Positions 22,646 through 47,360 of a stretch of DNA of 64,000 nucleotides are shown here, piece by piece. The translations under genes and the position numbers were made by a program. Numbering within the stretch: position 1 is the first letter of the stretch; each line of letters begins with the position of its first letter. The notes under the pieces were generated by a model. The model worked only from the letters and a program-made list of their open reading frames with translations. It ran no database searches and had not been told where the DNA came from. Origin of the DNA: a bacterium (GTDB taxonomy: Bacteria > Sysuimicrobiota > Sysuimicrobiia > Sysuimicrobiales > Segetimicrobiaceae); assembly GCA_035945995.1 (NCBI GenBank), contig DASYZR010000166.1:4855-68854 (forward strand), in the 5' to 3' direction.

Positions 22646-26127
<3,482 letters not shown>

Positions 26128-26131
<4 letters not shown>

Positions 26132-29036: not shown

Positions 29037-29076
29037 GACGCGGGTCGGCGGCGCCTTACCAGCGGGCCCGGCGTTC

Positions 29077-30060: not shown

Positions 30061-30078
30061 CGTGGAGCAGCCTGTCGC

Positions 30079-30267
30079 CTACGCCCTACGACTCCAAGGC
30101 CACCGCACGTTCCCGAAGGCGAGCCACAGGCCGAAGGGGATGAGGATGGCATCGGTTGTCAGGTTGATTACCCCGAGTGTCCCGCCCGGCTTCGGAATCC
30201 AGACGTAGACGCCTATAGCCAGAGCAAGCCATCCCCTTACGTCTTTCAGACCAAGGGACATCTTCAT
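30079..30267 (-). CDS. small hydrophobic membrane protein (62 aa)
   Basis: Product MKMSLGLKDVRGWLALAIGVYVWIPKPGGTLGVINLTTDAILIPFGLWLAFGNVRW. AGGGGGGG ribosome-binding site 8 nt upstream. Start is 16 nt downstream of the secreted-protein gene, and the terminator follows. Confidence 0.45.
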   Translation of the reverse strand: MKMSLGLKDVRGWLALAIGVYVWIPKPGGTLGVINLTTDAILIPFGLWLAFGNVRWPWSRRA

Positions 30268-30283
30268 GGCCGACCCCCCTGCC

Positions 30284-31066: not shown

Positions 31067-31231
31067 CCTCCCCCTCTTTCCGGCGAGGGCCGGGAATGAT
31101 AGCGGCCCGATGATACGGACAGTCTGCCGGGGAGGCAGTCAAGGTGGAGACACATAGACCGTCGCGTGCGAGACAAGAGCACGATGCAAATCGAACGTTA
31201 CGACGCCGGGCGCCGGAACGGGTTGGGAACC

Positions 31232-31864
31232 TCATAAGGCTGCCGGGGAAAGAATTTTGATGGCGCCTCCCCGCAACTCGACGACGCCGGCGCGCCGGAG
31301 TGCCATGAGCGCTGAGTTCACGCGCTGGCGGCTCGCCCCGGCGAGCGCCGCCAGGTCGCCCTGCGTCAGGTGCAGGGACGCCGGTCGCCCGTCGGCGAGC
31401 TCGCGTTCCGCCAGCGTCTGCAACGTGCGTCTGACGCGCACGGCGAGGCCTTCCAGCGCCAACGTCTCGGCGTGACCGGCAAGAAAGCGCACGCGATCGC
31501 TGAGATAATTCATGATCGCGAGCGCGACGGCGGGGTCGGCGCGCAGGGCACGTTGAACCTCGCCGACCGGCAGGCCCTGCACCGTGGATTCCACCGTCGC
31601 GCGGCACGAGGACTCGCACGGCCCTCCGCGGATCGCGTTCTCCAGTCCGACCAGGCCGCCCGGCCCCACCCAATCCGTGGCGATGTACGATCCGTCCTCG
31701 CGTTCCGACACGAGAATAAGGCCTCCGGCCTGCACGCGAAAGACATAGCTGCTGGGATCACCGTCGCGCGTCAGGAATTCGCCCTTGCGGAGGGCGCGTC
31801 TTCGCAGGCGCGAAGCGCAGTTCGGCCCGAACAACATCGCGGCAACGGCAGTCGAGTTGGTCAT
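31232..31864 (-). CDS. Crp/Fnr family transcriptional regulator
   Basis: N-terminal cNMP-binding domain and a C-terminal helix-turn-helix (TQGDLAALAGASRQRVNSALMALRRAGVV). Confidence 0.85.
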   Translation of the reverse strand: MTNSTAVAAMLFGPNCASRLRRRALRKGEFLTRDGDPSSYVFRVQAGGLILVSEREDGSYIATDWVGPGGLVGLENAIRGGPCESSCRATVESTVQGLPVGEVQRALRADPAVALAIMNYLSDRVRFLAGHAETLALEGLAVRVRRTLQTLAERELADGRPASLHLTQGDLAALAGASRQRVNSALMALRRAGVVELRGGAIKILSPAAL

Positions 31865-31991
31865 CGTCGCGCCAGGCCGGCCCCGACCGCATCCCTGTGA
31901 GACGTGACTGCTCGGGTATCGTTTGCGAACGAGCGGGGGTGGATTCCTTCAGACGATTACTAGTAGCGGGGCTTGCGATCGTCCGCCGGAT

Positions 31992-34115
31992 TTAGCCCGT
32001 GGCGTCCGCCACCCCGGCGTGGGTCGTCTGCTCCCAGGGTGTCCCGGCGGGGAGCGCGAGCTCCCAGCGGAGCACCAGCATCGCCCCCTGGTGATTCCGC
32101 TCGAGCCCGGCCTCCGAATTCGAGATCGTGAAGACGGGGAGGCTCCAGACGTCCGCGGGCCGCTCGAGGGCGAACGCAAGCCTGAGGCCGGAGTACGTCT
32201 CGCCGGCGTGCACGCCGGTGGTCGGGGGGAGATCCGCCGGCTCCCACAACGAGACGCGCGTCCCGTCCGCTGCGGCCCACACCTGCTCCGGTCCCCCGAA
32301 CAGCCCGAGGCTCCACTGTTCCGCGAGCACGGCGCGCAGGACGCCCGGCCCATCCCACATGAGACGCACGGCGTGGGTGAGCCCCCGGCGGCGTATGTCC
32401 ACCTCGATCCGGCGCCCGAGGGTCACCTGCCCCTCGCCAACCGGCGCGCGCCGTGTCAGCGCGGCCGCGGCGCCCGTCCCGGTCTCCTCGAGACGCCACG
32501 CGTACCGGCCGGAGCCGAATCCGCCCAGATCCTCCGCGGTGTCGCGCCACGCTTCGTCGCGCAACACCTCCGCCGGCCAGAGCCACGTTCGCATGGTCGC
32601 CCGGCGCACGCGATCGTACATGAGCAGCCGTTCGAGGCCCGGTTCCTTGGCGTGGTCGCCCGCCGCGTGAATCGAGACGGCTCCCTCGATCGGAGGCGCC
32701 TCGTGGCGCACGCGCGCATGGTAGGCTTCCGCCCGCCTCGTCAGCACGTTGCCGAGATGACGCCGCGCGGTCCGATCGTCCCACTCCACGACGCTGCCGC
32801 CCCGCGCCGGGTCCACCGTGCACACGTCCAGCTGGGTGGCCAGGTACAGTTCGGGCTGCCCGTCCCCGTTGAGGTCTTCGGCCGACGTCTCGGCGTACGG
32901 TTCCGGGTGCCGGATGAGGTCCGCGTCCGCTTCCGCGGCAATGAGGCGCTCAAACGCCGCGCTCCGAATGTGCGGCAGATAGATGCCGCCGAAGACGCCG
33001 TGCCAGTAGGTGCAGTTGCACTCGCCGCTCCAGAGCTCATCGAGCGCCCGCTCCCGGTCCGGCCCGGGCGGCATCGCGTGGACCTTGCGTCCGGCGCGGA
33101 GCGCCAGGTGGTGCAGCGTGTTGGCCTCCGGATATCGCACGAGGAAGTGCCGCCAGAATCCGCCGCGCACCAGCGACGCGAGGTCCTCGCGGCCCCCGGT
33201 TTCGAGGTCGTGCCGGAAGGTCGCCCGCGCCTCGGCGCGCTGCGGCGGGAGCGCCCATTCCGCCATCTCGTCGTACGTGGCCGTCGGCAGGTAGATCGCG
33301 CCGGCCGGGTCGTGGGTGCGCCGGTAGTCGCCCGGAGGCACCACGTCGATCCACGGCGTCGCCTCCAGCGTGTCGAAGAACCGATCCACCCACCCGCGCT
33401 CCCAGCAGTGCGCGTACGTGGTCGGCCACATCCCGAACTTCTCCCCGTCGTCGCCCATCAACGCGAGATCGAGCGGCGCGTCGCGGCCCTCCGGCCGGAC
33501 CTCCGTCTCCGCGAGCGTGCGGAGGTAGGCCACGACGTCCTCCGGCGACACCCACGGAATGAGATACCGCAGGCGCCGGAGGCTCGGGAACAGCGCGAGC
33601 GAGACGCCCTCCTCTTCGGTCACGTAATAGCCGAGCAGTTGTCGGTCTTCGAGCCCGACGGCGTGGAAGTGCGAGTCATCGACGATGGTGTACTTCACGC
33701 CGGCCTCGCCGAGCGGGCGCGCCAGATGCGGCTCCCAGACGCGCTCGGCCAGCCATAGCCCGTCCGCGGAGTACCCGAACCCGTCCCTGATCGCGCGCGT
33801 CATCTTCACGATCTGGCCGCGCTTGTCCGCGTCGGGCACGATCGGGAGGATCGCCTCGTAGTAGGCGCCGGTGAGCATCTCGATCTGTCCGCGCGCCACG
33901 AGCGCCCGCAGCCGCGCGATGAGCTCGGGGCGGTGCGCGCGCAGCCAGTCGAGCAGCGGGCCGGAATAATGCAGCGCGAGGCGGATGCCGGGGTGGCGCT
34001 CGAGCGAGGCGATCATCGGCGCGTACGATCGCTCGGTCGCCTCCGCGAAGACGTGGTCGAAGTTGCCGACCGGCTGGTGGTTGTGCAGCGCCAGGGCGAG
34101 TGCGAGCCGATGCAT
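31992..34115 (-). CDS. glycoside hydrolase family 57 protein (4-alpha-glucanotransferase / alpha-amylase type)
   Basis: Canonical GH57 motifs LALHNHQP, GQIEMLTGAYYEAILP and LMGDDGEKFGMWP. 707 aa. Confidence 0.9.
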   Translation of the reverse strand: MHRLALALALHNHQPVGNFDHVFAEATERSYAPMIASLERHPGIRLALHYSGPLLDWLRAHRPELIARLRALVARGQIEMLTGAYYEAILPIVPDADKRGQIVKMTRAIRDGFGYSADGLWLAERVWEPHLARPLGEAGVKYTIVDDSHFHAVGLEDRQLLGYYVTEEEGVSLALFPSLRRLRYLIPWVSPEDVVAYLRTLAETEVRPEGRDAPLDLALMGDDGEKFGMWPTTYAHCWERGWVDRFFDTLEATPWIDVVPPGDYRRTHDPAGAIYLPTATYDEMAEWALPPQRAEARATFRHDLETGGREDLASLVRGGFWRHFLVRYPEANTLHHLALRAGRKVHAMPPGPDRERALDELWSGECNCTYWHGVFGGIYLPHIRSAAFERLIAAEADADLIRHPEPYAETSAEDLNGDGQPELYLATQLDVCTVDPARGGSVVEWDDRTARRHLGNVLTRRAEAYHARVRHEAPPIEGAVSIHAAGDHAKEPGLERLLMYDRVRRATMRTWLWPAEVLRDEAWRDTAEDLGGFGSGRYAWRLEETGTGAAAALTRRAPVGEGQVTLGRRIEVDIRRRGLTHAVRLMWDGPGVLRAVLAEQWSLGLFGGPEQVWAAADGTRVSLWEPADLPPTTGVHAGETYSGLRLAFALERPADVWSLPVFTISNSEAGLERNHQGAMLVLRWELALPAGTPWEQTTHAGVADATG

Positions 34116-34138: not shown

Positions 34139-35740
34139 TCACGCGTCGTCCTCGCCGGCGGCGGCTTCGTCCCCTCGCGGCGACCGACCGGCGGCCGCCG
34201 TCTCGGACGCATGGTCGGCCACGCTGCCGGAGGGCATGTACAGCACGACGGCCGCGAGCCCCAGCGCGACGAACCCCAGTCCCAGCACGAAGGCGCCGTG
34301 GATCCCTTGGGCCAGCGCCTGCCGGAGCACTTCGTGTCCCGCCGGACCCAGCCGCGCCTGCGATCCCGCATCGAGCATCGCCTGCGGGTCGCCGATCGTG
34401 GGCAGGCCGAGCCGCACGCGCGCCGGCAGGTGCGCCAGCCGCGCGTCGAGGATGCCGACCAGCACCGCGCCCTGCGCGCTCACGCCGATCGCGCTGCCGA
34501 GATTGCGCGTAAAGATGTTGATCGACGTGACGATGCCCCGCAGCGGGCGCGCGACCGCGTTCTGCATCGCGATGATGAACATCGTCGCCGTGAGCCCCAT
34601 GCCGCTGCCCAGCACGATCATGTCGGCAAAGACGACGGTGGCCGTCGCGTGGACGTCCAGGCGCGTCAGGAGCAGCGACCCGGCGGCCAGCAGGGTCATC
34701 CCGCCCGTGGTCACCGGCCGGTAGCCCCACAGGAGCGCGAGGCGGCCGCCCACGATGCTCGACACGGTCCACATCACCATGTAGGGCATCAGCGCTTCCC
34801 CGGCGGTCGTGGCGCTCTTGCCGGTCACGGCCTGGACGAACAGCGGCACGTACGCCGTGGTCCCAAAAATACTTATGCCCAGCAGGAACCCGCCGAGGCA
34901 CGCCACGGCGATGATCCGGTTGCGGAACAGGCTGAACGGCAGGAACGGCTCTTCGGCGCGCATCTCTACGCGCGCGAAGAGCAGCAGGAGCGCCACGCAG
35001 AGGACGGCCAGCCCGGCCGCCTGCACGGAGAGCCACGCGAACTCGTGGCCGCCCCAAAACATCAGCAGCAGCAGGACGATCGAGGCGGCGGAGAGCAGGC
35101 TGATGCCGGCGTAGTCGATCGACGCGCGGGCGGCGGTCCTGGACTCGTGGAACGCCAGCGTGAGGATCAGCGTCGCGACGAGACCGGCCGGCACGTTGAT
35201 GAAGAAGATCCACCGCCACGCCCCGTGGTCGGCGAGAGCGCCGCCGACCAGGGGCCCGACGACGGCGGCGAGGCCCCACACCCCGCTGAACATGCCCTGG
35301 ATGCGCAGCCGCTGTTCGAGCGGGAAGAGGTCGGCGATGATCGTGAGCGCGATCGGGAGGACCGCGCCGCCGCCGATGCCCTGCAGCAGCCGGAAGAACA
35401 CGAGCTGCCCCATCGATTGCGAGAGCCCGCAGAGCGCCGAGGCCCCGATGAAGCCGAGGATGCCGATCAGGTACACGCGCTTGCGGCCGTGGATGTCCGC
35501 GAGGCGGCCGAAGATCGGCGTCGTCACCACAAAGGCGATCTGGTAGGCCGCGAAGACCCACGAGTAGAGGGCCAGGCCGCCGAATGCGCCGACGATCGTC
35601 GGCAGGGCCGTCCCCACGGCCGTGGCGTCCATCGCCGCGAGGAACATGCCGAGCATCGCCGCGACCGTGACGACGGCCCGGCGGCTCGGCGCGGGCGATC
35701 CGGCCTCGTCGCGGCCGCGGCCGGCGGTTACGACAGCCAT
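34139..35740 (-). CDS. MFS transporter (DHA2-like, 14 TM)
   Basis: Lower 533 aa of the run-on ORF 34139..36994. Has MFS motifs (GRLADIHGRKRV, LQGIGGGAVLP). Start MAVVTAG overlaps the glcE stop by 13 nt. Confidence 0.85.
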   Translation of the reverse strand: MAVVTAGRGRDEAGSPAPSRRAVVTVAAMLGMFLAAMDATAVGTALPTIVGAFGGLALYSWVFAAYQIAFVVTTPIFGRLADIHGRKRVYLIGILGFIGASALCGLSQSMGQLVFFRLLQGIGGGAVLPIALTIIADLFPLEQRLRIQGMFSGVWGLAAVVGPLVGGALADHGAWRWIFFINVPAGLVATLILTLAFHESRTAARASIDYAGISLLSAASIVLLLLMFWGGHEFAWLSVQAAGLAVLCVALLLLFARVEMRAEEPFLPFSLFRNRIIAVACLGGFLLGISIFGTTAYVPLFVQAVTGKSATTAGEALMPYMVMWTVSSIVGGRLALLWGYRPVTTGGMTLLAAGSLLLTRLDVHATATVVFADMIVLGSGMGLTATMFIIAMQNAVARPLRGIVTSINIFTRNLGSAIGVSAQGAVLVGILDARLAHLPARVRLGLPTIGDPQAMLDAGSQARLGPAGHEVLRQALAQGIHGAFVLGLGFVALGLAAVVLYMPSGSVADHASETAAAGRSPRGDEAAAGEDDA

Positions 35741-37104
35741 CCCAACCGTCCCGGGACCATGATGCTCCGCGGATCGTATTGCGCCCGCAGGCGGCGCATC
35801 AGGTCGACGGCGGGCGGCGCGGCTCCCCACACCGGCAGGCGCGGCTTGAGCGCGGGCGGCGCGACTTCGACGACGGCGTAGCCCTCGGGCGCGTCCGGTA
35901 CTTGGCCGTCGGCGGCCCGCCCGAGGGATTCGGCCAGCGCCGTCGCCCGGTCCGGCCCGGCCGCCACGTAGGTGAGTCCGATACCGGCGTGCGCCAGCAC
36001 CGCGGCGGGCGGATCCCCGGGGACCGCGTGGGCCGCGCCGGCGACGTCGATCCATCGCGTGATCGGCGTACCGACGCGGAAGACGACGCCGCCCGGATGC
36101 GTGGCGGGCGACGGAAATCCTGCCACGGCCCGCCACAGCGCCTCGTGCGCCGCGCCGGAGTGCACCTCGAGGACGGCGTCCGGCCCCCCGGCGGCCGCGG
36201 TCAGCGCGCGCATCTCCTCGACGTGGCGCCGGCGGCTCTCTTCGAGGCCTTCGGCCAGGAGCAGCACCCCCCATCGCCCGGCCCGCGCCTCGATCCCCGC
36301 GGCCCGCCCCAGCATGACGAGGGTTTCCGGGCTCGCGGCCTCGAGCGCGGAGGGGAGCAGGTACGACCGCATCACCGCGGTGGTGAGCGCGTGCGCCGCC
36401 GCGGCGCTCGGCAGGGTGACGAGGACCGTTACGCCGTCGCCGGGCAGCGGCAGGATCTTGAACGTCACGTCGGTGATGACCCCGCACGAGCCGAGCGAGC
36501 CGATGAACAACTTGCCGAGGTCGTACCCGGCGACGTTCTTCACGACCTTCCCGCCGGCCTTGATCACCTCGCCCGTGGGCAGCGCGACGCGGATGCCGAT
36601 GACGAGATCGCGGATCGCGCCCCACAAGAGGCGGCGGGGACCGTTGCGGTTCGCCGCGACGAGGCCGCCGATCGTGGCCGCCTCCGCGCCGGGCGGATCG
36701 AGCGGGAGCCACTGCCCGTTCGCCGCGAGGGCCCGCTGCACGTCGCGGAACGGCGTGCCGGCGCGGACCGCGACGACGTAGTCGGCCGGCGTGTAATCCG
36801 TGATCCCGGTGAGGCGCGTCGTCTCGATGACGAGGTCGGCGCGCTCGGGTGGATTGCCGAGATGCTGGTGCGCCCCGCCGCCGCGCGGGATCACGCCCGC
36901 GTTGGTGTCCGCGGCTGCGGTCAGGAGGGCGGCGACCTGCTCGGGATCCGCGGGCGCCGCCCCCAGCGCGGGGCGTACGCCGTCGATCTGCCATCCGTCA
37001 AGGCGGCCCGGGTCTGTGGTGACGTGGGCGTCCCCGACGATGCCGCGGACGCGCGCGGCCAGGGCGCCGCCGACCGCGTCTTGGGTGTGAGACACGCCGG
37101 TCAC
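35728..37104 (-). CDS. glcE: FAD-binding oxidoreductase, glycolate oxidase subunit GlcE-like
   Basis: FAD-binding PCMH domain (GVIPRGGGAHQHLG). GTG start overlaps the glcF stop as GTGA. Confidence 0.8.
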   Translation of the reverse strand: MTGVSHTQDAVGGALAARVRGIVGDAHVTTDPGRLDGWQIDGVRPALGAAPADPEQVAALLTAAADTNAGVIPRGGGAHQHLGNPPERADLVIETTRLTGITDYTPADYVVAVRAGTPFRDVQRALAANGQWLPLDPPGAEAATIGGLVAANRNGPRRLLWGAIRDLVIGIRVALPTGEVIKAGGKVVKNVAGYDLGKLFIGSLGSCGVITDVTFKILPLPGDGVTVLVTLPSAAAAHALTTAVMRSYLLPSALEAASPETLVMLGRAAGIEARAGRWGVLLLAEGLEESRRRHVEEMRALTAAAGGPDAVLEVHSGAAHEALWRAVAGFPSPATHPGGVVFRVGTPITRWIDVAGAAHAVPGDPPAAVLAHAGIGLTYVAAGPDRATALAESLGRAADGQVPDAPEGYAVVEVAPPALKPRLPVWGAAPPAVDLMRRLRAQYDPRSIMVPGRLGWLS

Positions 37105-38468
37105 GCCGGGCCGGGCGGCCCCGGGGCGCGCTCCGGATCGCCGGCGGCGTACGCCCGGTCGAGCAGGTCCACGACGTGGCAGGCTTCCATCGGCAGGCCC
37201 CGGGCGCGGATGCCGGCCGCGAGCTGCAGGAGGCATCCGGGGTTCGGGGCGACGAGGAGATCGGCGCCGGTCCGGGCGACGGCGCGCATCTTCTCCTCGA
37301 GAATCTGCCGCGAGTAGCCGGGCTGCACTACGTTGTAGATGCCGGCGCTGCCGCAGCAGCGGTCGGCCCCCTCCATCTCGACCAGCTCGAGCCCGGGGAT
37401 GCGGCGCAGCAGATCGCGCGGCTCGCGGCGGATGCGCTGGCCGTGGGCGAGGTGGCAGGGGTCCTGATAGGTGGCGCGCGCCCGGATCTCACCGAGGGAG
37501 CCGGTGAGGCCCAGGTCGGCGAGGAACTCCGTCGCGTCCCGGCACAGCCGGCTGTACGCGTCCGCCCGCGCCATGTACGCCGGGTCGTCGTCGCGGAACA
37601 GCACCGGATATTCCTTGCTCGCGACCCCGCAGCCCGCCGCGTTGATGACCACGGCGTCGACGCCCGCGCGCAGGAACACCTCGATGTTCCGGCGGGCCAT
37701 CTGCTGCGCGGCCGTGCGTTCGCCGTTGTGGATGTTGAGGGCGCCGCAGCAGGTCTGCTCCCGCGGGACGACGACCTCGCACCCGTTCCGCCGCAGCACG
37801 CGCACGGTGGCCTCGTTCGCCCCCGGAAAGAGGACGCTCATCGCGCAGCCGCTCAAGAAGCCCACGCGCGCGCGCCGCGGCCCGATCGCGGGGAAGACTT
37901 CCTGCGCCGGCGCAAACGGGGCATCCGGGACTTCCGGCAGCAGGGCTTCCATTTCTCCGAGCCGCTTCGGCATGAGGTGCAGCCGGCGGAGCGCGCGGCC
38001 GAGCCCGCTCCGCTGGTAGAGACGGAGCAGCCCCGCCGCGGCGCGCAGCCGCCGGGGGTGCGGCATCAGGTGCCGCAGCGCCGCGAGCGTTACGCGGCGG
38101 GCCAGCGGCGAGCCGGTGGGGCCGATCTCCGCGCGCGCCGCTTCGATGATCGTGCCGAAGTGGACGCCGGCGGGGCAGGCGGTCTCGCAGGCGCGGCAGC
38201 CGAGGCAGACGTACATGTGCTCCTCGAGCCGCGCATCGATCGGAATGCGTCCCTGCGCCGCGGCCTCGATCAGATGGATCCGGCCGCGCGGCGACTCGGT
38301 CTCCACGCCCAGCATCCGGTACGTCGGGCACGCCGGCAGGCAGAACCCGCACTGAATGCACTTGTCGAGCTCCGGGATCAGCAGCCGCGGGATCGGCTGG
38401 GCGGCCGCCCGGCCGTGCGGGCCGCCGTCACGCGGCGCGGTCCTGCCTGCGCGGGCGGGGGACGCCAT
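37101..38468 (-). CDS. glcF: (Fe-S)-binding protein, glycolate oxidase iron-sulfur subunit GlcF-like
   Basis: Two 4Fe-4S ferredoxin Cys clusters (CIQCGFCLPACP, CLGCRACETACP) and CCG domains (CCGSAG). The listed ORF extends spuriously upstream; the ATG at 38468 lies 6 nt after the glcD stop. Confidence 0.85.
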   Translation of the reverse strand: MASPARAGRTAPRDGGPHGRAAAQPIPRLLIPELDKCIQCGFCLPACPTYRMLGVETESPRGRIHLIEAAAQGRIPIDARLEEHMYVCLGCRACETACPAGVHFGTIIEAARAEIGPTGSPLARRVTLAALRHLMPHPRRLRAAAGLLRLYQRSGLGRALRRLHLMPKRLGEMEALLPEVPDAPFAPAQEVFPAIGPRRARVGFLSGCAMSVLFPGANEATVRVLRRNGCEVVVPREQTCCGALNIHNGERTAAQQMARRNIEVFLRAGVDAVVINAAGCGVASKEYPVLFRDDDPAYMARADAYSRLCRDATEFLADLGLTGSLGEIRARATYQDPCHLAHGQRIRREPRDLLRRIPGLELVEMEGADRCCGSAGIYNVVQPGYSRQILEEKMRAVARTGADLLVAPNPGCLLQLAAGIRARGLPMEACHVVDLLDRAYAAGDPERAPGPPGPA

Positions 38469-38473
38469 CGCGC

Positions 38474-39946
38474 TCAGATCCACAACCCCGACGCCGCAAG
38501 GCGCGGCGGGCGGCGGGTGAGGAGTTCCCCACAGGAGACGGGGGTCGGGAACACCTTGAAGGGGTTCATGCAGTCCTCCGGGTCGAACGCCGTCTTCAGC
38601 CGCCGCTGCGCGCCGAGGTCGGCCTCGGTGAAGATCCACGGCATGTAGTTGTTCTTTTCGAAGCCGATGCCGTGCTCTCCGCTCAAGGTCCCGCCCGCCG
38701 CCACGCACGCGGTGAGCATCTCCTCGCTGGCCCGCATCACCCGCTCGGTTTCCCCGGGGGCCGCCGCGTCGTAGGGGATGAGCGGGTGCAGGTTGCCGTC
38801 GCCGGCGTGAAACACGTTGGCGACCCGGATGCCGTGGCGCCGCGCGATCTCGACGATCTGATGCATGATCGCCGGCAGTTGGCTCCGGGGGACGACGGCG
38901 TCGTGGAGGAAGTAGTTGGGGGCCAGGCGCCCCATCGCCCCGAACGCGCCCTTGCGGGCCGCCCAATACAGAAGCCGTTCCTGGTCGGTCCGCGCCGTGC
39001 GGACCTCACGGGCGCGATTCGCGCGGCACAGGTCCTCGACGGTGCGGGTGCACCGTTCGAGGCCTTCCCGGACGCCCTCCACTTCGATCAGCAAGACCGC
39101 GCCCGCGTCGAGGGGGAGCCCCGCGTGCACCGCGGGCTCGACGGCCTGCGCCGTGAGCTGGTCGATCATCTCGAGCGAGGTGGGCCCGATACCCGAGGCG
39201 ATGATGTCCGCCACGGCCTGGCTGGCGTCCTCGATCGTCTCGAAGATGCCGAGCATCGTCCGGACCGTCTCGCGGCGCCGCAGCAGCCGGACGGTCGCGG
39301 CCGTCACGATGCCGATCGTGCCCTCCGACCCGACGGCGAGGCCGGTGAGATCGAGCCCCGGCTCGTCCGGCCCACGGCCGCCCAGCCGCGCGACCGAGCC
39401 GTCCGCCAGCACCATCTCGAGCCCGAGCACGTGGTTGGTCGTCACGCCGAAGGCGAGCGTGTGCACGCCGCCGCTGTTGTTGGCCACGTTGCCGCCAATG
39501 CTGCACGCGGACTGGCTGCTCGGGTCGGGCGCGTAGAAGTACCCGTCGCCCTCGACCGCGCGCGTGACGTCGAGGTTGATCACGCCCGGCTGCACGACCG
39601 CGGTCCGGTTCTCGAGGTCGACGGCGAGGATCCGGCGCATCTTGCTCATCGCGACGACGATGCCGCCGATCGGCGTGATCGCCCCGCCGGACAGCCCGGT
39701 GCCCGAGCCGCGGGCCACGAGGGGGACGCCGAACCGGCCGGCCGCGCGCACGAGGGCGGCCACGTCGTCCGTCGACTCGGGGAACACGACGAGGTCCGGC
39801 AGGGCGGCCAGGACCGACCCGTCGTACTCGTAGGCCAACAGGTCGACCGGCTGCGCGAAGACCCGCTCCCGGCCCAGCGCGTCGACGAGGGCGCCGATGA
39901 GGGCGTCGCGGTCGGCAATACGGCAGCGCAACTCGGCGAGGCTCAC
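38474..39946 (-). CDS. glcD: FAD-linked oxidase, glycolate oxidase subunit GlcD
   Basis: FAD-binding domain (GSGTGLSGGA) and a C-terminal oxidase domain. 490 aa. Confidence 0.9.
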   Translation of the reverse strand: MSLAELRCRIADRDALIGALVDALGRERVFAQPVDLLAYEYDGSVLAALPDLVVFPESTDDVAALVRAAGRFGVPLVARGSGTGLSGGAITPIGGIVVAMSKMRRILAVDLENRTAVVQPGVINLDVTRAVEGDGYFYAPDPSSQSACSIGGNVANNSGGVHTLAFGVTTNHVLGLEMVLADGSVARLGGRGPDEPGLDLTGLAVGSEGTIGIVTAATVRLLRRRETVRTMLGIFETIEDASQAVADIIASGIGPTSLEMIDQLTAQAVEPAVHAGLPLDAGAVLLIEVEGVREGLERCTRTVEDLCRANRAREVRTARTDQERLLYWAARKGAFGAMGRLAPNYFLHDAVVPRSQLPAIMHQIVEIARRHGIRVANVFHAGDGNLHPLIPYDAAAPGETERVMRASEEMLTACVAAGGTLSGEHGIGFEKNNYMPWIFTEADLGAQRRLKTAFDPEDCMNPFKVFPTPVSCGELLTRRPPRLAASGLWI

Positions 39947-39982: not shown

Positions 39983-40891
39983 TCACGGCAGGAGGCGCAT
40001 CAACGTCTCCGCGCACGCCACGGCGGATCCCCACCCGGCGCCACCCTCCTCGTAGTGCCACCACGCGGACAGCACCGCCTGGGCGACGCCCCAGCCCGCA
40101 ACGCGGTGCCGGTCCAGGCCGAGCTCGGCGGCCAGCAGCTCGACGCGGCGCTGCTGCACGGCCGAGTTCAGATAGAGGTCCGGGGACGGGTTGCGCAGCA
40201 GCGCGCCCACGTCGTACGCGGGCTCCGCGGCGAGGCCCTTGGGATCGATCGCGAGCCAGGAGCGCCGCGTGGCCGACAGGATGTTGAAGTGATGGAGGTC
40301 GCCGTGCACGAGCACCGCGGGTGCTGCGGACGCCGGCAATTCCTCGAACAACGCCTCCGCCGTCTCGACGAGCCGCGCATCGAACGGACCGGTGCCGCCG
40401 TCGAAGCGCCGGCGCAGGCGCCGCAGTCCCGCGGCCCAATGCGCCGCCGCCGGAAAGGTATGCCCGGCCGGCAGCGGCCGCCACAGATCGCGCATTACCC
40501 GGGCGGCGATGACCGTCGCCTGGTCGTCGTCCACGGCGTCCGACAGTTTGGACGCCGGCCGCACGCGCTCCAGCAAGAGCATCCCCTGTTGTTCGTCCGC
40601 GTCGAGCAGCTCCACCGCGGCCCCGCCCGCGTACACTCGAAGGGTCCGGATCTCGCTTTCGAGCTCCGGACGCGGCACGCCGATCTTGACCACGACGTCG
40701 CGGCCCTGGGCGGTGAGGGCGGGGGCCACGTAATTAAAGGAAAGTTCGAACGATTCCTCGGCGATGCGAACGTGCCACCGGCGCTCGCACTCCTCGATCA
40801 GCGACGGAAGGGACTCCAGCCACGCGGCTCCTTCCGGGAATGCGCCGCGCACGGTCCGCCGGAATCCTTCCGGGAGGTTGTGGTCCGGCAT
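39983..40891 (-). CDS. aminoglycoside phosphotransferase family protein, APH(6)/StrB-like kinase
   Basis: Protein-kinase-like fold with the HGDLHHFNIL catalytic motif and a DPKG region, typical of streptomycin 6-kinase-like APH enzymes. Confidence 0.8.
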   Translation of the reverse strand: MPDHNLPEGFRRTVRGAFPEGAAWLESLPSLIEECERRWHVRIAEESFELSFNYVAPALTAQGRDVVVKIGVPRPELESEIRTLRVYAGGAAVELLDADEQQGMLLLERVRPASKLSDAVDDDQATVIAARVMRDLWRPLPAGHTFPAAAHWAAGLRRLRRRFDGGTGPFDARLVETAEALFEELPASAAPAVLVHGDLHHFNILSATRRSWLAIDPKGLAAEPAYDVGALLRNPSPDLYLNSAVQQRRVELLAAELGLDRHRVAGWGVAQAVLSAWWHYEEGGAGWGSAVACAETLMRLLP

Positions 40892-40986
40892 CTCCGGTAA
40901 GACATTCCGTGACGCCGGGCCGCGTTCATGCCGGGACCCGCCGCCCGGAAGGAGACCCGGCCGGCCGACTCGGAAACTCTGCCGCG

Positions 40987-41625
40987 ATGCGGATCTTCAC
41001 CATCGGTCACTCGACGAGCTCCTTCGACGAACTCGTCGCGGCGCTGCGCGGGTTCGGGGTGCGCACGCTCGTCGACATCCGGACGGTGCCGCGCTCGCGC
41101 CACGTGCCGCAGTTCAACGCCGAGACCTTGCGTCGGACGCTGCCCAACCGGCGCATCCGCTACCGGCACGTGCGCGCGCTCGGCGGGTTGAGAAAGGCCC
41201 GCGCGGACTCGAGCAACACCGCGTGGCGGAACGCGAGTTTCCGTGGGTTTGCCGATTACATGGAAACGCCGGAGTTCGCGGAGGCGGTCGACGGGCTGCG
41301 CGCGCTGTCCCGCGAGGCCGGCCCGGTCGCCATCATGTGCGCCGAGGCGGTGCCCTGGCGGTGCCACCGCTCGCTCGTCGCGGATGCGCTGGCGGCCGGG
41401 GGGGACGAGGTCGTGCACATCATGGGTCCCGGCACCGGGCGTCTGCACTCTCTGACGCCGTGGGCGCGGGTGGCGGGCGGGCGGGTCACCTACCCGGGAC
41501 CGCCGCCTCCGCCCGCGCGGGCCACGCGCCGTCCGTCATCTCGCCGCGACGCCCGCGTGCCGCGCGCCGGCCCAGGTGCGTCAGGCGGGCGGGCGAAGGC
41601 GAAGCAGGGTGCGCTTTGGAAATAG
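40987..41625 (+). CDS. DUF488 family protein
   Basis: Characteristic N-terminus MRIFTIGHSTSSFDELVAALRGFGVRTLVDIR and a CAEAVPWRCHRSL motif, followed by a Pro/Arg-rich tail. Confidence 0.75.
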   Translation: MRIFTIGHSTSSFDELVAALRGFGVRTLVDIRTVPRSRHVPQFNAETLRRTLPNRRIRYRHVRALGGLRKARADSSNTAWRNASFRGFADYMETPEFAEAVDGLRALSREAGPVAIMCAEAVPWRCHRSLVADALAAGGDEVVHIMGPGTGRLHSLTPWARVAGGRVTYPGPPPPPARATRRPSSRRDARVPRAGPGASGGRAKAKQGALWK

Positions 41626-41666
41626 ACCGGCGAGTTCCATTCGAGCGCGCAATGCGGGAGGCTCCC

Positions 41667-42038
41667 ATGGAGACCGAACATTCCTACGCGATCGATCTCG
41701 ACGCACGGTTTGGACCGCTGGAACTGATCGACGTGCAGGCGCTGGTCGATACGTGCGCGCAGCCCTGGTACAACCAGACGCTCTGCCGGGTCAACGACAG
41801 CGTCGTGCGACTCGGCGTGGTGCACGGCGATTTCCACTGGCACAAACACGACCGGGACGACGAGTTCTTCTACGTCGTCGACGGGCGATTCGTCATCGAT
41901 CTGGAGGGCCGCAGGGTCGAACTCGCCCCCCGGCAGGGCTTCATGGTGCCGAAGGGCGTGCTCCACAGGACCAGCGCGCCGGAGCGTACGGTGATCCTCA
42001 TGGTCGAAAACGCCGGGATCAGGCCGACGGGCGACTGA
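41667..42038 (+). CDS. cupin domain protein
   Basis: GGGAGG ribosome-binding site 7 nt upstream of the ATG. Cupin motifs present (GVVHGDFHWHKHDRDDEFFYVVDGRF ... MVPKGVLHRT). Confidence 0.7.
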   Translation: METEHSYAIDLDARFGPLELIDVQALVDTCAQPWYNQTLCRVNDSVVRLGVVHGDFHWHKHDRDDEFFYVVDGRFVIDLEGRRVELAPRQGFMVPKGVLHRTSAPERTVILMVENAGIRPTGD

Positions 42039-42057
42039 CGCCTTCGGCCGGCGCACG

Positions 42058-43044
42058 ATGCGGCAGGTCCCCGCAGGTCTGGCGATTCTGATCGCGATCG
42101 GTCTGGGGCTTGGTCTGTCGGGTCCGGCGCCACGGTCGGGAGCGGCTTCGCCGGACGCCGCGACGATCGGCCGGTGGGAGCCGCGCCCGCCTGCCCTCAC
42201 CGATCGGTCCGAGGTCGCGGGCGCGGCGCTCGGGGATCACATCTACGTCGTGGGCGGCCTCACCGCGATCGGCGTGACGGCCGACGTTCAGGAATACGAT
42301 CCGGCCGCAAACCGGTGGCGGGCGGTCGCACCGCTGCCCCAGGCGGTCCACCATCCCGCCGCCGCTGCGCTTGACGGACGGCTCTATGTGATCGGCGGCT
42401 TCGTCGCCCGCGACCGTTCGATCTGGCATCCCATCAACACCGTGTACGAGTACGATCCCCGCACGGACCGGTGGCGCACGCGGGCGTCGATGCCGAGCGC
42501 ACGGGGCGCGCTCACGGCGGTTGCCGCCGGAGGGCGCATCTACGCCGTAGGCGGTACGGCCGGCCGCGATACCGGTGCGATCGAAACCTATGATCCCGCG
42601 ACCGACACGTGGAAGCGATTGCGCTCCATGCCGACGCCGCGCAATCATCTTGCCGCCGTTGCGCTGGACGGACGAATCATCGTCTTCGGCGGCCGCGTCG
42701 GCGAGCCGGCGCGGAACGTCGGTACGGTTGAAGCGTACGATCCCACGACCGACACCTGGCAGACGCGGGCGCCGCTCCTCACGCCGCGCAGCGGACTCGG
42801 CGCGGCGGCCGTCGCCGGACGCGCGTACGTCATGGGCGGCGAATTGGGTCGCCCGGGCACCTATCCGGAGAACGAGGAATACGACCCAACGACGGACCGA
42901 TGGACGCCTCGCGCGCCGATGCCGTCGCCCCGCCACGGCCTGGCCGTCGTCGGCGTCGGCGGACGGATTTACGCGCTGAACGGCGGGCCCCGTCCGGGCG
43001 GCACCTACAGCAACGTGAACGAGGTGTACTTCCCGCCGCGATAA
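42058..43044 (+). CDS. Kelch-repeat beta-propeller protein, secreted
   Basis: Signal peptide followed by six repeats of the Kelch pattern (GxxxYVxGG...YDPxTxxW). Confidence 0.8.
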   Translation: MRQVPAGLAILIAIGLGLGLSGPAPRSGAASPDAATIGRWEPRPPALTDRSEVAGAALGDHIYVVGGLTAIGVTADVQEYDPAANRWRAVAPLPQAVHHPAAAALDGRLYVIGGFVARDRSIWHPINTVYEYDPRTDRWRTRASMPSARGALTAVAAGGRIYAVGGTAGRDTGAIETYDPATDTWKRLRSMPTPRNHLAAVALDGRIIVFGGRVGEPARNVGTVEAYDPTTDTWQTRAPLLTPRSGLGAAAVAGRAYVMGGELGRPGTYPENEEYDPTTDRWTPRAPMPSPRHGLAVVGVGGRIYALNGGPRPGGTYSNVNEVYFPPR

Positions 43045-43592
43045 TCCGCTCGATCGTGCGCTTCCACGTCCGCGCGCGTGATGCGCATGAGATACACGGC
43101 CGGGGAGGCATCCGGCGGGGCCGCGGCCGGAACACGCCGGAACCCCGCCTTCTCGTATGCCCGAATGGCGACGCGGTTCCGGGGCGACGGGTCCACGTAG
43201 CACGCGTCGACGGCCTCGTCGGCGAACACGATCTTCCGGAGGAAGGCCTCGAGGATGCGCGGCCCGAGCCCGCGTCTCACGTAACGGGCGTCGCCGATGA
43301 AGAGGTCCAGGCCGACGCCGGACCCCGTGTCGTGCAGGCCCCACGTGCCGCCGGCGATGCGATAGAGTTGGATGTAGCCGATCGGTGTCTCGTTCCGGTC
43401 GATGAGGTACGGCACCGCGTCGTGCGTCCCGCTCACCCGAGGGAGGTATTTCGCGCGCACCTCGTCGAGCGTCGGACCCGGGCGGTCCCACCACTCGAGC
43501 ACGTGCGGCGTGTTCAGCCAGCGATGAAGCAGCGGCAGATCGGATTCGGCGAGGCGCCGAAACGAGATCCGGTCGGGCGTATCGTGAGACAT
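43005..43592 (-). CDS. GNAT aminoglycoside N-acetyltransferase, AAC(6')-Ib-like
   Basis: 195-aa product alignable by eye along its length with AAC(6')-Ib: LHRWLNTPHVLEWW vs LYEWLNRSHIVEWW, YLP, PIGYIQLY, DPSPRNRVAIRAYEKAGF, ASPAVYLM. Confidence 0.8.
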   Translation of the reverse strand: MSHDTPDRISFRRLAESDLPLLHRWLNTPHVLEWWDRPGPTLDEVRAKYLPRVSGTHDAVPYLIDRNETPIGYIQLYRIAGGTWGLHDTGSGVGLDLFIGDARYVRRGLGPRILEAFLRKIVFADEAVDACYVDPSPRNRVAIRAYEKAGFRRVPAAAPPDASPAVYLMRITRADVEAHDRADYRGGKYTSFTLL

Positions 43593-43710: not shown

Positions 43711-44125
43711 ATGGACGTGAGCATCTGGGAGGCCATGGCGGCCTGGTATGACGCCAAGCAGGGCGACGACGGCGATCTCTGGCACCGGACGCTCATCGAT
43801 CCCGCGCTGCTGCGGGTGGTCGGCCCGGTGGCCGGCCGGCGCCTGCTGGACCTGGCCTGCGGGAACGGATATCTGGCGCGCCGGCGAGGACCACGTCGCG
43901 AACACGCCGGCCTACCACCGGCTGCTCTCGTGGTACGTCCGGACGCTTCGGACGGCCGGATTCGTCATCACCGCGTTTGAAGAGCCGGAGCCGACTGAGG
44001 AGTTCCTGGCCGGCTCTCCCGCGGGACCGTGGATTGCGGAGATTCCGTTGCACTGTGTGCTCGAAGCGCGCCTGGAGGCGACGACTCCCGAACGCGCGAC
44101 CGACGGCGGGGCCAGCGCGGAATAG
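43711..44125 (+). pseudogene. class I SAM-dependent methyltransferase remnant (frameshifted, internally deleted)
   Basis: Frame A holds motif I (LLDLACGNGY) after a GAGGAGG ribosome-binding site. Only about 12 codons later the frame +1 continues with a methyltransferase C-terminal region (PAYHRLLSWYVRTLRTAGFVITAFEEPEP). The middle roughly 100 aa are missing. Confidence 0.5.
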
Positions 44126-44230: not shown

Positions 44231-44863
44231 ATGCCGTCGAACGCCTACCGGCGGTCTGCGGGGTCCGCCGCGCTTGCCGCGGCGGTCACCACGTTTGTGT
44301 ACTCGGTCGCATTCGTCGTGGTCACGCCGGCCGCGCCGCACGCCGGCCGGACGCTGGCCGCCCTGTGTCTCGGGCTCGGCGCCATCTTCTCGACCGCCGT
44401 CCTGGTCGGCATCTACGAGGCCGTGCGGGAGATCGATCCCGCCAAGGCGTTATGGGGCCTGCTGCTCGGGATCATCGGGGCGGCCGGCGCGCTCGTCCAC
44501 GGCGGCTACGATCTCGCGGTCGCCGTCGGCCCCGCCTCCGGCGCCGGTGTTCCGGCCGGCGCGCTGAGCCCGGTCGATCCGCGCGGTCTGCTCACCTTCG
44601 GCGCGAGCGGAGTCGGGCTCGCGGTCCTGGCCGGACTGATGGCGCAGACGTCGTCCGGGAGCCGGGCCGGCGCGTTTCCGGGGCCCCTTGCCGGGCTCGG
44701 GTATCTGCTCGCGGTGCTGGAGATCATCTTGTACGTCGGCCGGCTCTTGATCGTGACGCCGGCCAACCCTCTGATCGTGGTCCCGGCGCTTCTCGCGGGG
44801 TTCGTCGTCGGGCCCGCCTGGTATCTCTGGCTCGGGGTGGTCTTCCGCCGCGCGCGCGCGTAA
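44231..44863 (+). CDS. hypothetical integral membrane protein (about 5 TM, DUF4386-like composition)
   Basis: GGGGGG ribosome-binding site 7 nt before the ATG at 44231. The ORF is open from 44168. Product is Ala/Gly/Leu/Val-rich with multiple hydrophobic helices. Confidence 0.55.
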   Translation: MPSNAYRRSAGSAALAAAVTTFVYSVAFVVVTPAAPHAGRTLAALCLGLGAIFSTAVLVGIYEAVREIDPAKALWGLLLGIIGAAGALVHGGYDLAVAVGPASGAGVPAGALSPVDPRGLLTFGASGVGLAVLAGLMAQTSSGSRAGAFPGPLAGLGYLLAVLEIILYVGRLLIVTPANPLIVVPALLAGFVVGPAWYLWLGVVFRRARA

Positions 44864-44897: not shown

Positions 44898-45668
44898 TCA
44901 GGCGCCCGAGCCGGCCAGGGCTCCGGTCGCGATCATCTGCGCGAGGCGCTCGATCCGCTCCGCGAACATCTTCTCACCGAGCTCCGCAGTCGACCCGCGC
45001 GCGTCCCCGAGGATGCCGGTCGGGCTCATGGTGTCCATCGGCGGCGGCACCTTCGATCGCCACCGGATCGACGCGTCTCCGGTGAAGCCTTCGCAGGCCT
45101 TGTCCATCTGCACGAGATCGGGGCGATGGGCCAGCATCAGGGACGTCTCTCCCTGGGCCGCGTGCACGCCCAGTTTTGTCATGTCGAGGCCTTCGCGCGC
45201 CGCGAACGCCCGCGTGTGCTGCAGCCATTCGTCGAAGTCGGTCACCGCGGAGATCCGTAGGGCCGCGTGCTCGTCCCGCAGGCGCGGCAGCGCGCCGCGC
45301 AGCGCGCGGTAGTTGCCGCCGTGGCTGCACAGCAGGATGATCTCGCGGAACCCGTGGCGGGCCAGCGAGCGGCAAACGTCCTGGATCACGGTCTCGAGGG
45401 TCGCCTCCTCGATGCTCACGGTTCCCGCCATCGGGAGATGCCCGGCGGAGTACCCGAGCGAGACGACGGGTGCGACCAGCGCGTCGCCGAGCCGGCGCGC
45501 GAGTCGGACGCCGGTCGCGTACCCGAGGTAGGTGTCGGTGCCGATCGGCAGGTGCGGCCCGTGCTGCTCCATCGCTCCGAGCATCACGATCACGCGGCGT
45601 TTGCCCGCGGCGATGGCGTCCCGTACTTCCGGCCAGGTCATCTCCTCGATCAGCACCGTGTCGCGCAT
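44898..45668 (-). CDS. creatininase family protein (creatinine amidohydrolase-like)
   Basis: Creatininase motifs (GAMEQHGPHLPIGTD, GYSAGH, CSHGGN). Start placed at MRDTVLIEEMTWPE. Confidence 0.8.
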   Translation of the reverse strand: MRDTVLIEEMTWPEVRDAIAAGKRRVIVMLGAMEQHGPHLPIGTDTYLGYATGVRLARRLGDALVAPVVSLGYSAGHLPMAGTVSIEEATLETVIQDVCRSLARHGFREIILLCSHGGNYRALRGALPRLRDEHAALRISAVTDFDEWLQHTRAFAAREGLDMTKLGVHAAQGETSLMLAHRPDLVQMDKACEGFTGDASIRWRSKVPPPMDTMSPTGILGDARGSTAELGEKMFAERIERLAQMIATGALAGSGA

Positions 45669-45794
45669 CTCCGAGTCCTCCTGGGGCCGGCGCAGGCATC
45701 GGTCCGGCACTCACGAACACGACTTCGCGACGGCCGCGCATCACTCCCCGCGTCCGCGGCCGGCCGTGACCCCGAGATTCTCGAGGAGGCGCGC

Positions 45795-47360
45795 ATGACG
45801 GACGGTAGGCGAGATCGGGCGGTGGCGGCGCTTCGGGCGCATCTTGCGACGATCGCCGACCTCCGGGCGGCGACCGCGATTCTGCGGTGGGATCAGGAGA
45901 CGCAGATGCCGCCGGGCGGGGCGGAAGGCCGCGCCCTCCAGCTGGCGACGCTCGCGCGCCTCGCGCACGAACTCCTCGTGTCGGACGAGACGCGCCGGCG
46001 GCTCGACGCCGCCTCCCGCGCCGCCGACGGCGCCGAGCCGGGATCGGACGAGGCCGCCCTTGTCCGGGTCACCCGCCGCGATCTCGACCGGGCCGCGAAG
46101 CTGCCGGCCGACTTCGTCGCGGAACAGCGGCGCGTGACGGCGGTCGCGACGCACGTGTGGCAGGAGGCGCGGCGGGCCGACGACTTCGCCGTGTTTCGTC
46201 CGCACCTCGAGCAGGTCGTGACGCTTGCGCGGCGCGAGGCGGACTACATCGGGTACGCGGACCATCCCTACGACGCGCTGGTGGACCGGTACGATCCTGG
46301 AATGACCGCGCGGGAGCTCGAAGCGCTGTTTCGCCGCCTGCTCGACGTGATCGTGCCGCTCGTTCGGGCGATCGCGGCGCGGGCGGGCGCGGTCGACGCC
46401 GGCGTCCTGGACGCGGACTTCGACGAGGACGCGCAGCGGGCGTTCGCGCTCGAGATCGTGCAGACCTTCGGCTACGAGACCCGCCGCGGGCGGCTCGACC
46501 TGTCGGCGCATCCCTTCTCCACCAAGTTCCACCGCGACGACGTACGCATCACCACGCGGTTCGGGCGGCGCTTATCGGCCGTGTTCGGCACCTTTCACGA
46601 GTCGGGGCACGCGATGTACAGTCAGGGAACGGCGCCGGCCCTCGAACGCTCGCCGTTGTCGGAGGGCGCCGGCAGCGGCATCCACGAGTCGCAATCCCGG
46701 ATGTGGGAAAACCTCGTGGGCCGCAGCCGCCCGTTCTGGCAGTACGCGTTCCCCCGGTTGCGCGAGACGTTTCCGGCGCAGCTCGGCCGGACCGACGCCG
46801 AGGCGGTGTACCGGGCGGTCAACCTCGTGGAGCCGGGACTGATTCGGGTCCGCGCCGACGAAGCCACCTACAACCTGCACGTCATTCTTCGGTTCGAGCT
46901 TGAGAAGGCGCTGCTGACCGAGGAGCTCGCGGTGCGGGATCTGCCGGAGGCGTGGGGCGGCAAGATGCGCGCGTACCTCGGCGTAGTACCGCCCACCGAT
47001 ACGGACGGCGTGCTGCAGGACATCCATTGGTCTAGCGGCCTCGTGGGGTCGTTCCCGTCGTACACGCTCGGCAACGTGGCGTCGGTGCAGTTGTTCGAAG
47101 CGGCCTGCCGGGCGCATCCCGCCGTTCCGGCGGAGATGCGCGAGGGCCGGTTCGAGACGCTCTATGGGTGGATGCGCGAGCACGTCTATGTGCACGGGCG
47201 CAAGTTCCTGCCTGCCGAGCTGCTGGAGCGCGCCACGGGCCGCGCGCTGACCCCGGAGCCGTACCTCCGCTATCTGCGCGCCAAATTTGCCGAACTCTAC
47301 GGCCTCGAATCCGCGCACGGCGGGGACGACAAGCCGTCGGGGCCCGGTGCTCCAGAGTAA
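45795..47360 (+). CDS. carboxypeptidase M32 (thermostable carboxypeptidase Taq-like)
   Basis: HESGHAMY zinc motif and a conserved HPF/IRVRADE region. GAGGAGG ribosome-binding site precedes the ATG. Confidence 0.9.
   Translation: MTDGRRDRAVAALRAHLATIADLRAATAILRWDQETQMPPGGAEGRALQLATLARLAHELLVSDETRRRLDAASRAADGAEPGSDEAALVRVTRRDLDRAAKLPADFVAEQRRVTAVATHVWQEARRADDFAVFRPHLEQVVTLARREADYIGYADHPYDALVDRYDPGMTARELEALFRRLLDVIVPLVRAIAARAGAVDAGVLDADFDEDAQRAFALEIVQTFGYETRRGRLDLSAHPFSTKFHRDDVRITTRFGRRLSAVFGTFHESGHAMYSQGTAPALERSPLSEGAGSGIHESQSRMWENLVGRSRPFWQYAFPRLRETFPAQLGRTDAEAVYRAVNLVEPGLIRVRADEATYNLHVILRFELEKALLTEELAVRDLPEAWGGKMRAYLGVVPPTDTDGVLQDIHWSSGLVGSFPSYTLGNVASVQLFEAACRAHPAVPAEMREGRFETLYGWMREHVYVHGRKFLPAELLERATGRALTPEPYLRYLRAKFAELYGLESAHGGDDKPSGPGAPE

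Follow-up and report, generated by a model that had tools for sequence, protein, structure and literature searches.

The window analysed here, the whole 64-kb stretch of bacterial DNA introduced above, carries between 39983 and 43592 two genes whose products resemble aminoglycoside-modifying enzymes: a small-molecule kinase like the streptomycin 6-kinases of the APH(6) group and, across a gap of 2.1 kb, a GNAT acetyltransferase like AAC(6')-Ib. The original prediction had described the two as a cluster of resistance genes in an accessory stretch, with DUF488, cupin and Kelch genes between them and a degraded methyltransferase next to the GNAT, and had offered as explanations that mobile resistance genes reside in or come from such clusters, that the genes give self-resistance, or that they have some other native role. 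Its description of what lies at the locus proved accurate on all of these genes. Gene order was obtained by open reading frame (ORF) calling guided by GC content at third codon positions (GC3), combined with Pfam, and is given on the plus strand; L092, L093, L012 and L102 denote relatives whose loci are set out further on.

35728-37236, minus strand: glcE (ORF calling and Pfam).
To 38966, minus strand: glcF (ORF calling and Pfam); 88-98% identity in L092, L093 and L012.
38474-39946, minus strand: glcD, matching FAD_binding_4 and FAD-oxidase_C; 89-97% identity in L092, L093 and L012.
35728-39946, minus strand: the glcD-glcF-glcE genes as a whole, a conserved glycolate-oxidase-type operon flanking the kinase gene on its downstream side.
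39983-40891, minus strand: small-molecule kinase of 302 aa, PF04655 (APH_6_hur).
40987-41625, plus strand: DUF488 protein of 212 aa (PF04343, E 4e-33).
41667-42038, plus strand: cupin_2 protein of 123 aa (PF07883, E 3.5e-12); 88-91% identity in L092 and L102.
42058-43044, plus strand: Kelch beta-propeller protein of 328 aa (Kelch_1, E 4e-61, 5 repeats).
43005-43592, minus strand: GNAT of 195 aa, Acetyltransf_8 / AacA4-like group (PF13523, E 9e-30).
43711-44125, plus strand: remnant of a class I S-adenosylmethionine (SAM) methyltransferase, found by tblastn/blastn against the intact 267-aa orthologue of L092.
44231-44863, plus strand: predicted membrane protein of 210 aa, no Pfam match.
44898-45668, minus strand: creatininase-family gene (PF02633, E 4e-66); 87% identity in L012.
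45795-47360, plus strand: M32 carboxypeptidase gene (PF02074 on orthologues); 79% identity in L012.

On the shared strand 36 bp separate the kinase gene from glcD downstream of it, and divergent from the kinase gene the DUF488 gene heads a co-directional DUF488-cupin-Kelch run; DUF488 orthologues hold the same position in all four relatives at 75-83% identity. The Kelch protein has a hydrophobic, signal-like N-terminus, and its gene and that of the GNAT are convergent, with 3' ends that overlap by 40 nt. A Kelch orthologue with 83.5% identity is present in L102, and L092 and L012 lack one. The membrane protein is 91-92% identical over the N-terminal 128-149 residues of its L092 orthologue, truncated there by the end of the contig, and no homologue was detected in L012 or in the examined part of L102. 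The creatininase-family and M32 carboxypeptidase genes (44898-47360) form the conserved flank on the GNAT side. A promoter and terminator scan of 38-46 kb returned no sites, such a scan being uninformative for this organism. Identical proteins in the same gene order were found again in many independent soil-metagenome assemblies.

Comparison with the four relatives shows how these genes belong together. Their loci read as follows.

L092 (closest relative, GlcD 97%): membrane protein, intact methyltransferase, GNAT fused to a PCMT-like domain of about 390 aa, cupin, DUF488, kinase (89%), glcD.
L093 (GlcD 91%): DUF488, kinase (75%), glcD-F-E.
L012 (nearest GTDB representative, GlcD 89%): M32 carboxypeptidase, creatininase, GNAT (57%), DUF488, a FAD oxidoreductase in the kinase slot, glcD-F-E.
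L102 (more distant relative, M32 77%): M32 carboxypeptidase, intervening genes, intact methyltransferase, GNAT (66%), Kelch (83.5%), cupin (88%), DUF488 (75%), ABC transporter; neither kinase nor glcD.

The five-gene block methyltransferase-GNAT-Kelch-cupin-DUF488 keeps its order and orientation in L102 (4213-7669), where the GNAT has diverged much faster than its neighbours (66% versus 75-88%). From this comparison it follows that there are two separate syntenic units: kinase-glcDFE and methyltransferase-GNAT-Kelch-cupin-DUF488 are the recurrent units, and they abut in the window by chance. A wider linkage scan, in which a GNAT profile recovered 80 loci from GTDB species genomes and tblastn then sought the kinase within 10 kb on either side, gave the same picture: these loci span Chloroflexota, Actinomycetota, Bacillota, Patescibacteria, Myxococcota and others, and the kinase lay within 10 kb of the GNAT homologue in none of the 80. 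Nor did DUF488, cupin or Kelch genes lie near the GNAT at any of 79 more distant loci. From the other side, kinase homologues of 57-70% identity at four further loci lie among unrelated genes (ribonucleotide reductase, ABC transporters, a two-component system, a carbamoyltransferase), with a GNAT linked in none. The claim that two resistance genes form a cluster here thus fails on both sides.

The GNAT fusion of L092 deserves separate description. Positions 1387-3090 (plus strand) of that locus encode a 567-aa protein in which the GNAT, as N-terminal domain, is followed by some 390 C-terminal residues resembling PCMT-type SAM methyltransferases (motif VLEIGTGTGFNA); this second domain takes the place of the Kelch gene that is present in the window and in L102.

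We looked for signs of mobility in the flanks and found none of those sought. Pfam searches of 46 window ORFs returned no transposase, integrase or recombinase, a tRNA/tmRNA scan and Rfam gave no matches in the window, and a repeat scan of 39-46 kb yielded only short high-GC chance matches and the internal repeats of the Kelch gene. GC content is flat across the region at 0.70-0.73, and neither the kinase (GC3 0.88) nor the GNAT gene (0.87) deviates in GC or GC3 from the flanks (0.88-0.95), the Kelch gene being slightly lower at 0.81. Measured against L092, synonymous divergence (dS) is 0.29 for the kinase and 0.33 for the GNAT, near that of the flanking genes (glcD 0.20, DUF488 0.37, cupin 0.65), and therefore speaks for vertical co-inheritance of kinase and GNAT. 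The corresponding ratios of nonsynonymous to synonymous divergence (dN/dS), 0.19 for the kinase, 0.33 for the GNAT and 0.08 for glcD, indicate that both genes are under purifying, if somewhat relaxed, selection.

Distance from the clinical genes is large. When 72,556 plasmids were searched by tblastn, the GNAT reached 44% identity to AAC(6')-IIa, 43% to AAC(6')-IIc, 40.5% to AAC(6')-31 and 39% to AAC(6')-Ib and Ib-cr; the kinase gave 267 records at E<=1e-5, and aph(6)-Id, carried by 4,151 of these plasmids, was not among the matches listed. All plasmid matches listed for either protein are below 60% identity. By BLASTP the kinase is 29% identical to APH(6)-Id over 256 aa and 28% to APH(6)-Ic over 293 aa; tblastn validated the APH(6)-Id query, which 4,059 plasmids carry under the annotation APH(6)-Id with at least 99% identity. 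To recognise the recent origin of a mobile resistance gene, Ebmeyer et al. (2021, PMC7782503) ask for nucleotide identity of at least 90-95% together with synteny of the co-mobilised region. The window comes nowhere near either, its values being at most 44% (GNAT) and 29% (kinase) amino-acid identity. We consequently give next to no credence to the view that the pair was acquired recently as a resistance island or that clinical aac(6')-Ib and aph(6)-Id evolved from it: differing gene content in the interval between related genomes and the presence of a pseudogene speak for it, and against it stand amino-acid identities of 39-44% and 28-29%, the absence of mobile-element genes among the scanned ORFs and of tRNA, flanking repeats or a composition shift, dS values near those of neighbouring core genes, and relatives whose orthologues occupy the corresponding place. 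So far as it can be tested here, the idea of a recent island or clinical source is refuted by low identity, missing mobility signals, vertical dS and conserved position, and the suggestion that mobile resistance genes reside in or arose from this locus is not supported.

We therefore hold, with moderate confidence, that the kinase and the GNAT are two unrelated, vertically inherited chromosomal genes, each a divergent representative of an enzyme family that is very large in the environment (at E<1e-10, more than 2,963 matches for the kinase and 897 for the GNAT), which adjoin only because two syntenic units abut.

For the GNAT, phmmer against the PDB confirmed the full-length relationship that had been proposed by eye, with AAC(6')-Ib11 and AAC(6')-Ib (1v0c, 2pr8) as best matches at E 1e-34 over residues 5-174, followed by AAC(6')-Im (6e-18), MbtK/EryM (4e-17) and Rv1347c (3.5e-8). 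In the alignment with AAC(6')-Ib, 67 of 168 ungapped columns are identical (38-40%). The motifs on which the original prediction leaned read LNTPHVLEWW, YLP, IGYIQ, DPSPRNRVAIRAYEKAGF and PAVYL; all are present as quoted except the last, given there as PAVYM. An AlphaFold (AF2) model of the GNAT (predicted local distance difference test, pLDDT, 88) has AAC(6')-Ib as its best PDB match, with template-modelling (TM) scores of 0.77/0.86, and the top Foldseek matches are 2prb, 2qir, 2vqy, 2bue and 1v0c (TM 0.76-0.86).

Residues were compared in AF479774 numbering, anchored on this alignment, and all ten check residues (10/10) gave the expected letters. AAC(6')-Ib is inactivated by mutation at Y80, D117, L120, E167 and F171 (PMC3656343 Table 2), which correspond to Y62, D96, I99, E147 and F151 of the GNAT. 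Its proposed general base, general acid and P-loop, D115, Y164 and L124-G129 in Vetting numbering (PMC4964394), have their counterparts in D96, Y146 and V105-G110; the GNAT further keeps W84, D134 and D161, and D96, I99 and F151 are invariant across 25 homologues. Since the essential and catalytic positions are matched, the GNAT has its catalytic machinery intact. The enzyme would most likely move an acetyl group from acetyl-CoA directly to the primary amine of a small molecule, with V105-G110 as the putative P-loop, Asp96 as general base and Tyr146 as general acid.

The specificity positions Q118/L119 of AAC(6')-Ib are L/F in the GNAT, and the acidic residues E75, D102, E106, E107 and D110 have become H, G, L, H and G. 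The isoelectric point (pI) of the GNAT is 8.7 with a net charge of +2, versus pI 4.5 and about -11 for the aligned AAC(6')-Ib core, whole-protein charge being a proxy only; members of its close subclade (at least 52% identity) range from neutral to basic (pI 6.1-11), and homologues further removed lie at pI 4.7-5.8. This shift in the subclade, crude proxy that it is, leans against a polycationic acceptor. The GNAT also scores below the NCBIfam cut-offs (NF012165, 130.6 versus 280 bits; TIGR04431, 128.9 versus 260; NF033074 AAC_6p_Ib, 109.8 versus 400), and these low scores together with the L/F specificity positions, the lost acidic residues and the basic pI argue against simple membership of the family.

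The kinase, which was rightly recognised from its HGDLHHFN motif, matches Pfam APH_6_hur over the full profile (positions 1-252/252) with 143.7 bits against a cut-off of 27 (E 8e-42), and contains LVHGDLHHFNIL. Against the NCBIfam APH_6 model (NF012171) it reaches 131 bits of the 325 demanded, so that neither protein attains the curated family to which its appearance would assign it. Residues K69, E76, H196-G-D198-L-H-H-F-N203 and D216-P-K218 are invariant among 26 homologues, and the kinase is active-looking as far as its residues can tell. It would most likely phosphorylate a small-molecule hydroxyl, taking the gamma-phosphate from ATP, by way of a Lys69-Glu76 pair, Asp198 as presumed catalytic residue, and Asn203 and Asp216 as Mg ligands. 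Its AF2 model (pLDDT 93) adopts the fold general to APH enzymes and choline kinases, the best PDB TM scores being 0.5-0.65. No PDB sequence matched at E<=1e-3, and the fold search found only generic APH, choline-kinase and Mph relatives, no close solved relative; from generic matches of this kind we draw no substrate for the kinase. It belongs to a clade with, among the matches listed, at least 120 homologues at 54% identity or more, automatically named 'streptomycin 6-kinase'.

Two relatives of the kinase were encountered in settings of their own. P0197, a natural fusion of 442 aa, joins a GNAT domain of a different type (PF13673/PF13508/PF00583) to an APH_6_hur kinase 60% identical to that of the window. 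On the Legionella pneumophila conjugative plasmid NZ_CP021273 (18118-23387, locus L100), a PF04655 kinase with 31% identity (E 4e-34) sits in an array of six GNAT genes with a pyridoxamine-phosphate-oxidase-family gene and a cyclase-family gene.

The similarities of both proteins to aminoglycoside-enzyme families far exceed chance by these scores, and in calling them true homologues with catalytic residues kept the original prediction was right.

Several observations weigh against our reading of the pair as unrelated native genes and have to be set beside it. First, the interval between glcD and the creatininase-family gene varies in gene content between close relatives and is not strictly 'core'; to this extent the description as an accessory stretch stands, and the interval is locally flexible, yet the kinase and the GNAT are long-term residents of it. 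Second, the change from L120 to I99 is conservative and the other essential AAC(6')-Ib positions are unchanged in the GNAT, whose best sequence and structure matches are AAC(6')-Ib and AAC(6')-II rather than siderophore acyltransferases; with essential residues kept and such best matches, the GNAT may have true AAC(6') activity. Third, an argument from pI is crude in an Arg-rich, high-GC proteome. Fourth, the known APH(6)-I enzymes are quite divergent among themselves, so that 28-29% identity is by itself compatible with streptomycin phosphorylation by the kinase. Finally, 24 of 28 predicted new enzymes tested by Lund et al. conferred resistance, the 28 having passed optimised thresholds and being tied to mobile elements and pathogens (PMC10400643).

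Much of this bears on an intrinsic resistome pair, in which the GNAT would be a working aminoglycoside 6'-N-acetyltransferase, the kinase a working streptomycin 6-kinase, or both, with at least one giving the host a measurable tolerance of aminoglycosides in soil. We consider such a pair unlikely, though it is the alternative we take most seriously. The full-length homology of the GNAT to AAC(6')-Ib and AAC(6')-II, with D96, Y146, Y62, W84, E147, F151, D134 and D161 conserved and AAC(6')-Ib as best fold match, agrees with it, as do the complete set of catalytic motifs in a PF04655 kinase, the high rate at which predicted enzymes were validated (PMC10400643) and purifying selection on both genes. 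It has to contend with scores well under the curated equivalog cut-offs in both proteins, a GNAT without the acidic residues E75, D102, E106, E107 and D110, a subclade pI of 6.1-11 against 4.5 for AAC(6')-Ib, the failure of the two genes to co-occur anywhere else among 80 GNAT loci, and the unrelated housekeeping contexts of the kinase family. Some promiscuous, weak modification of aminoglycosides by either enzyme is possible, a dedicated resistance function is not indicated, and a native, non-clinical role, one of the options first proposed, is the likeliest for both genes. The kinase holds a lineage-conserved place in front of glcDFE, and this could mean that its substrate is a metabolite and not an antibiotic.

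The methyltransferase beside the GNAT is degraded, as had been noticed. Window positions 43711-43884 correspond to nt 1-174 of the intact L092 gene (267 aa, 804 nt) at 94% identity, and 43873-44125 to nt 552-804 at 88%; the lesion is a 389-bp out-of-frame internal deletion that leaves codons 1-58 and 180-267, and a 12-nt imperfect direct repeat, CTGGCGCG(G/C)CGG, marks the join. Four independent metagenome assemblies show this junction letter for letter, and the deletion is therefore not an assembly artefact. The intact L092 orthologue matches Methyltransf_11/25, and the gene is intact in L102 too.

This history matters for the proposal that the GNAT and its conserved neighbours (methyltransferase, secreted Kelch protein, cupin and DUF488) form a tailoring or detoxification module for a metabolite or envelope component, the likeness to aminoglycoside enzymes being ancestry only. 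The conserved order and orientation of the five genes in L102, which has neither kinase nor glcD, the GNAT fusion to a PCMT-like methyltransferase domain in L092 and the charge shift of the GNAT subclade all suit such a module. Set against these, the block falls apart readily: the methyltransferase gene of the window carries a deletion, L092 has no Kelch gene, and L012 retains GNAT and DUF488 alone. DUF488, cupin and Kelch are missing from the surroundings of the GNAT at all 79 more distant loci, the genes are spread over three transcription units, and the GNAT evolves much faster (66% versus 75-88%) than its neighbours; we rate the module as decidedly improbable. A bolder version appears a little more doubtful still: that this subclade of AacA4-like acetyltransferases switched its acceptor away from polycationic aminoglycosides, and that the block would be a previously undescribed small-molecule or peptide tailoring module. 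It is put forward because the acidic surface is lost, because methyltransferase, secreted Kelch, cupin and DUF488 keep conserved company with the GNAT, and because of the PCMT-domain fusion in one relative.

The remaining genes of the window bear on producer self-resistance, to which we attach a vanishingly small probability. The precedent is APH(6)-Ia, the self-resistance kinase of a streptomycin producer. What the 64 kb encode is of another kind: aspartokinase, homoserine kinase, threonine synthase, DapA and PdxA, the GlgE/TreS-Mak alpha-glucan pathway, GH57 enzymes, glycogen synthase, glcDEF, peptidases and several ABC transporters; the surroundings of kinase homologues are non-biosynthetic as well. 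In the 64-kb window we saw no genes of aminocyclitol, sugar-aminotransferase or other aminoglycoside biosynthesis, and self-resistance is rejected.

Other features of the window are recorded for completeness. The alpha-glucan metabolism cluster at 18472-34115, typical core metabolism, comprises a GH57/TrkA_C protein, GlgE, a TreS-Mak fusion (1184 aa), a TreZ/GlgX-like enzyme and a GH57 4-alpha-glucanotransferase, with glycogen synthase at 53250-55211. At 15530-17184 and 17286-18128 an MBL-fold (Lactamase_B_2) protein lies beside a hexapeptide-repeat transferase, followed by a 280-aa high-GC3 ORF with no Pfam match. The only compositionally odd stretch of the window is a low-GC patch at 29000-31900 (0.61-0.66 versus about 0.71), possibly a more recent acquisition, which holds a cNMP-binding C-terminal fragment (29077-29709, minus strand), a Crp/Fnr-type regulator (31232-31864, minus strand) and a secreted-looking 260-aa protein (30284-31066, minus strand; no Pfam match, GC3 0.72). 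Homologues of ThrC (8681-9784) form a clade at 74-90% identity and then drop to 68% or less across Actinomycetota, Bacillota, Armatimonadota and Nitrospirota; the host belongs to a deep, uncultured, high-GC soil lineage.

Taken as native genes, the pair adds two divergent, non-mobile homologues to families with hundreds to thousands of uncharacterised environmental lineages, and does not tell where aac(6')-Ib or aph(6)-Id came from. It also carries a caution: motif-level likeness to clinical resistance enzymes and proximity do not make a resistance cluster. Should the GNAT or the kinase modify aminoglycosides after all, this would be one more deep environmental resistome case from an uncultured lineage, not a surprising one, and such activity would help in setting thresholds for resistome annotation.

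Among known systems, the AAC(6')-Ib/AAC(6')-II group (AacA4; NF012165, TIGR04431; 1V0C, 2PRB) contains the closest characterised relatives of the GNAT, with which it shares the fold, a full-length alignment, the P-loop type, the base (D117 to D96) and the tyrosine (Y166 to Y146), and Y80, W104, E167, F171, D154 and D181 of AAC(6')-Ib have conserved equivalents. Unlike clinical AAC(6')-Ib, the GNAT is encoded by a non-mobile chromosomal gene of an uncultured soil lineage and not by an integron cassette. The siderophore and lysine N-acyltransferases (MbtK/EryM 9NNR, Rv1347c 1YK3) share PF13523 and the fold, but are much weaker matches (E 4e-17 and 3.5e-8 versus 1e-34 for AAC(6')-Ib), and the GNAT has no siderophore biosynthetic neighbours. 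The kinase resembles APH(6)-I enzymes (Ia/Ib/Ic/Id; PF04655, NF012171) in Pfam family, full profile length and protein length, and both keep the HGDLHHxN catalytic loop, the IDP(K/V) Mg-binding motif and the N-lobe Lys; unlike them, the kinase falls in a separate, populous environmental clade and is not on Tn5393- or Tn5-type elements. A parallel to the pair as a whole lies in the predicted aminoglycoside-modifying enzyme families of Lund et al. (2023), who drew 7,525 new homologue families from about 1M genomes, mostly of non-pathogens, with 513 assigned to the AAC(6')-I/II type and 1,776 to the combined APH(6)-I and APH(3')-II type (PMC10400643). Like the GNAT and the kinase, these include chromosomal AAC(6')- and APH(6)-type homologues of non-pathogens, the host here being an uncultured lineage represented by a metagenome-assembled genome.

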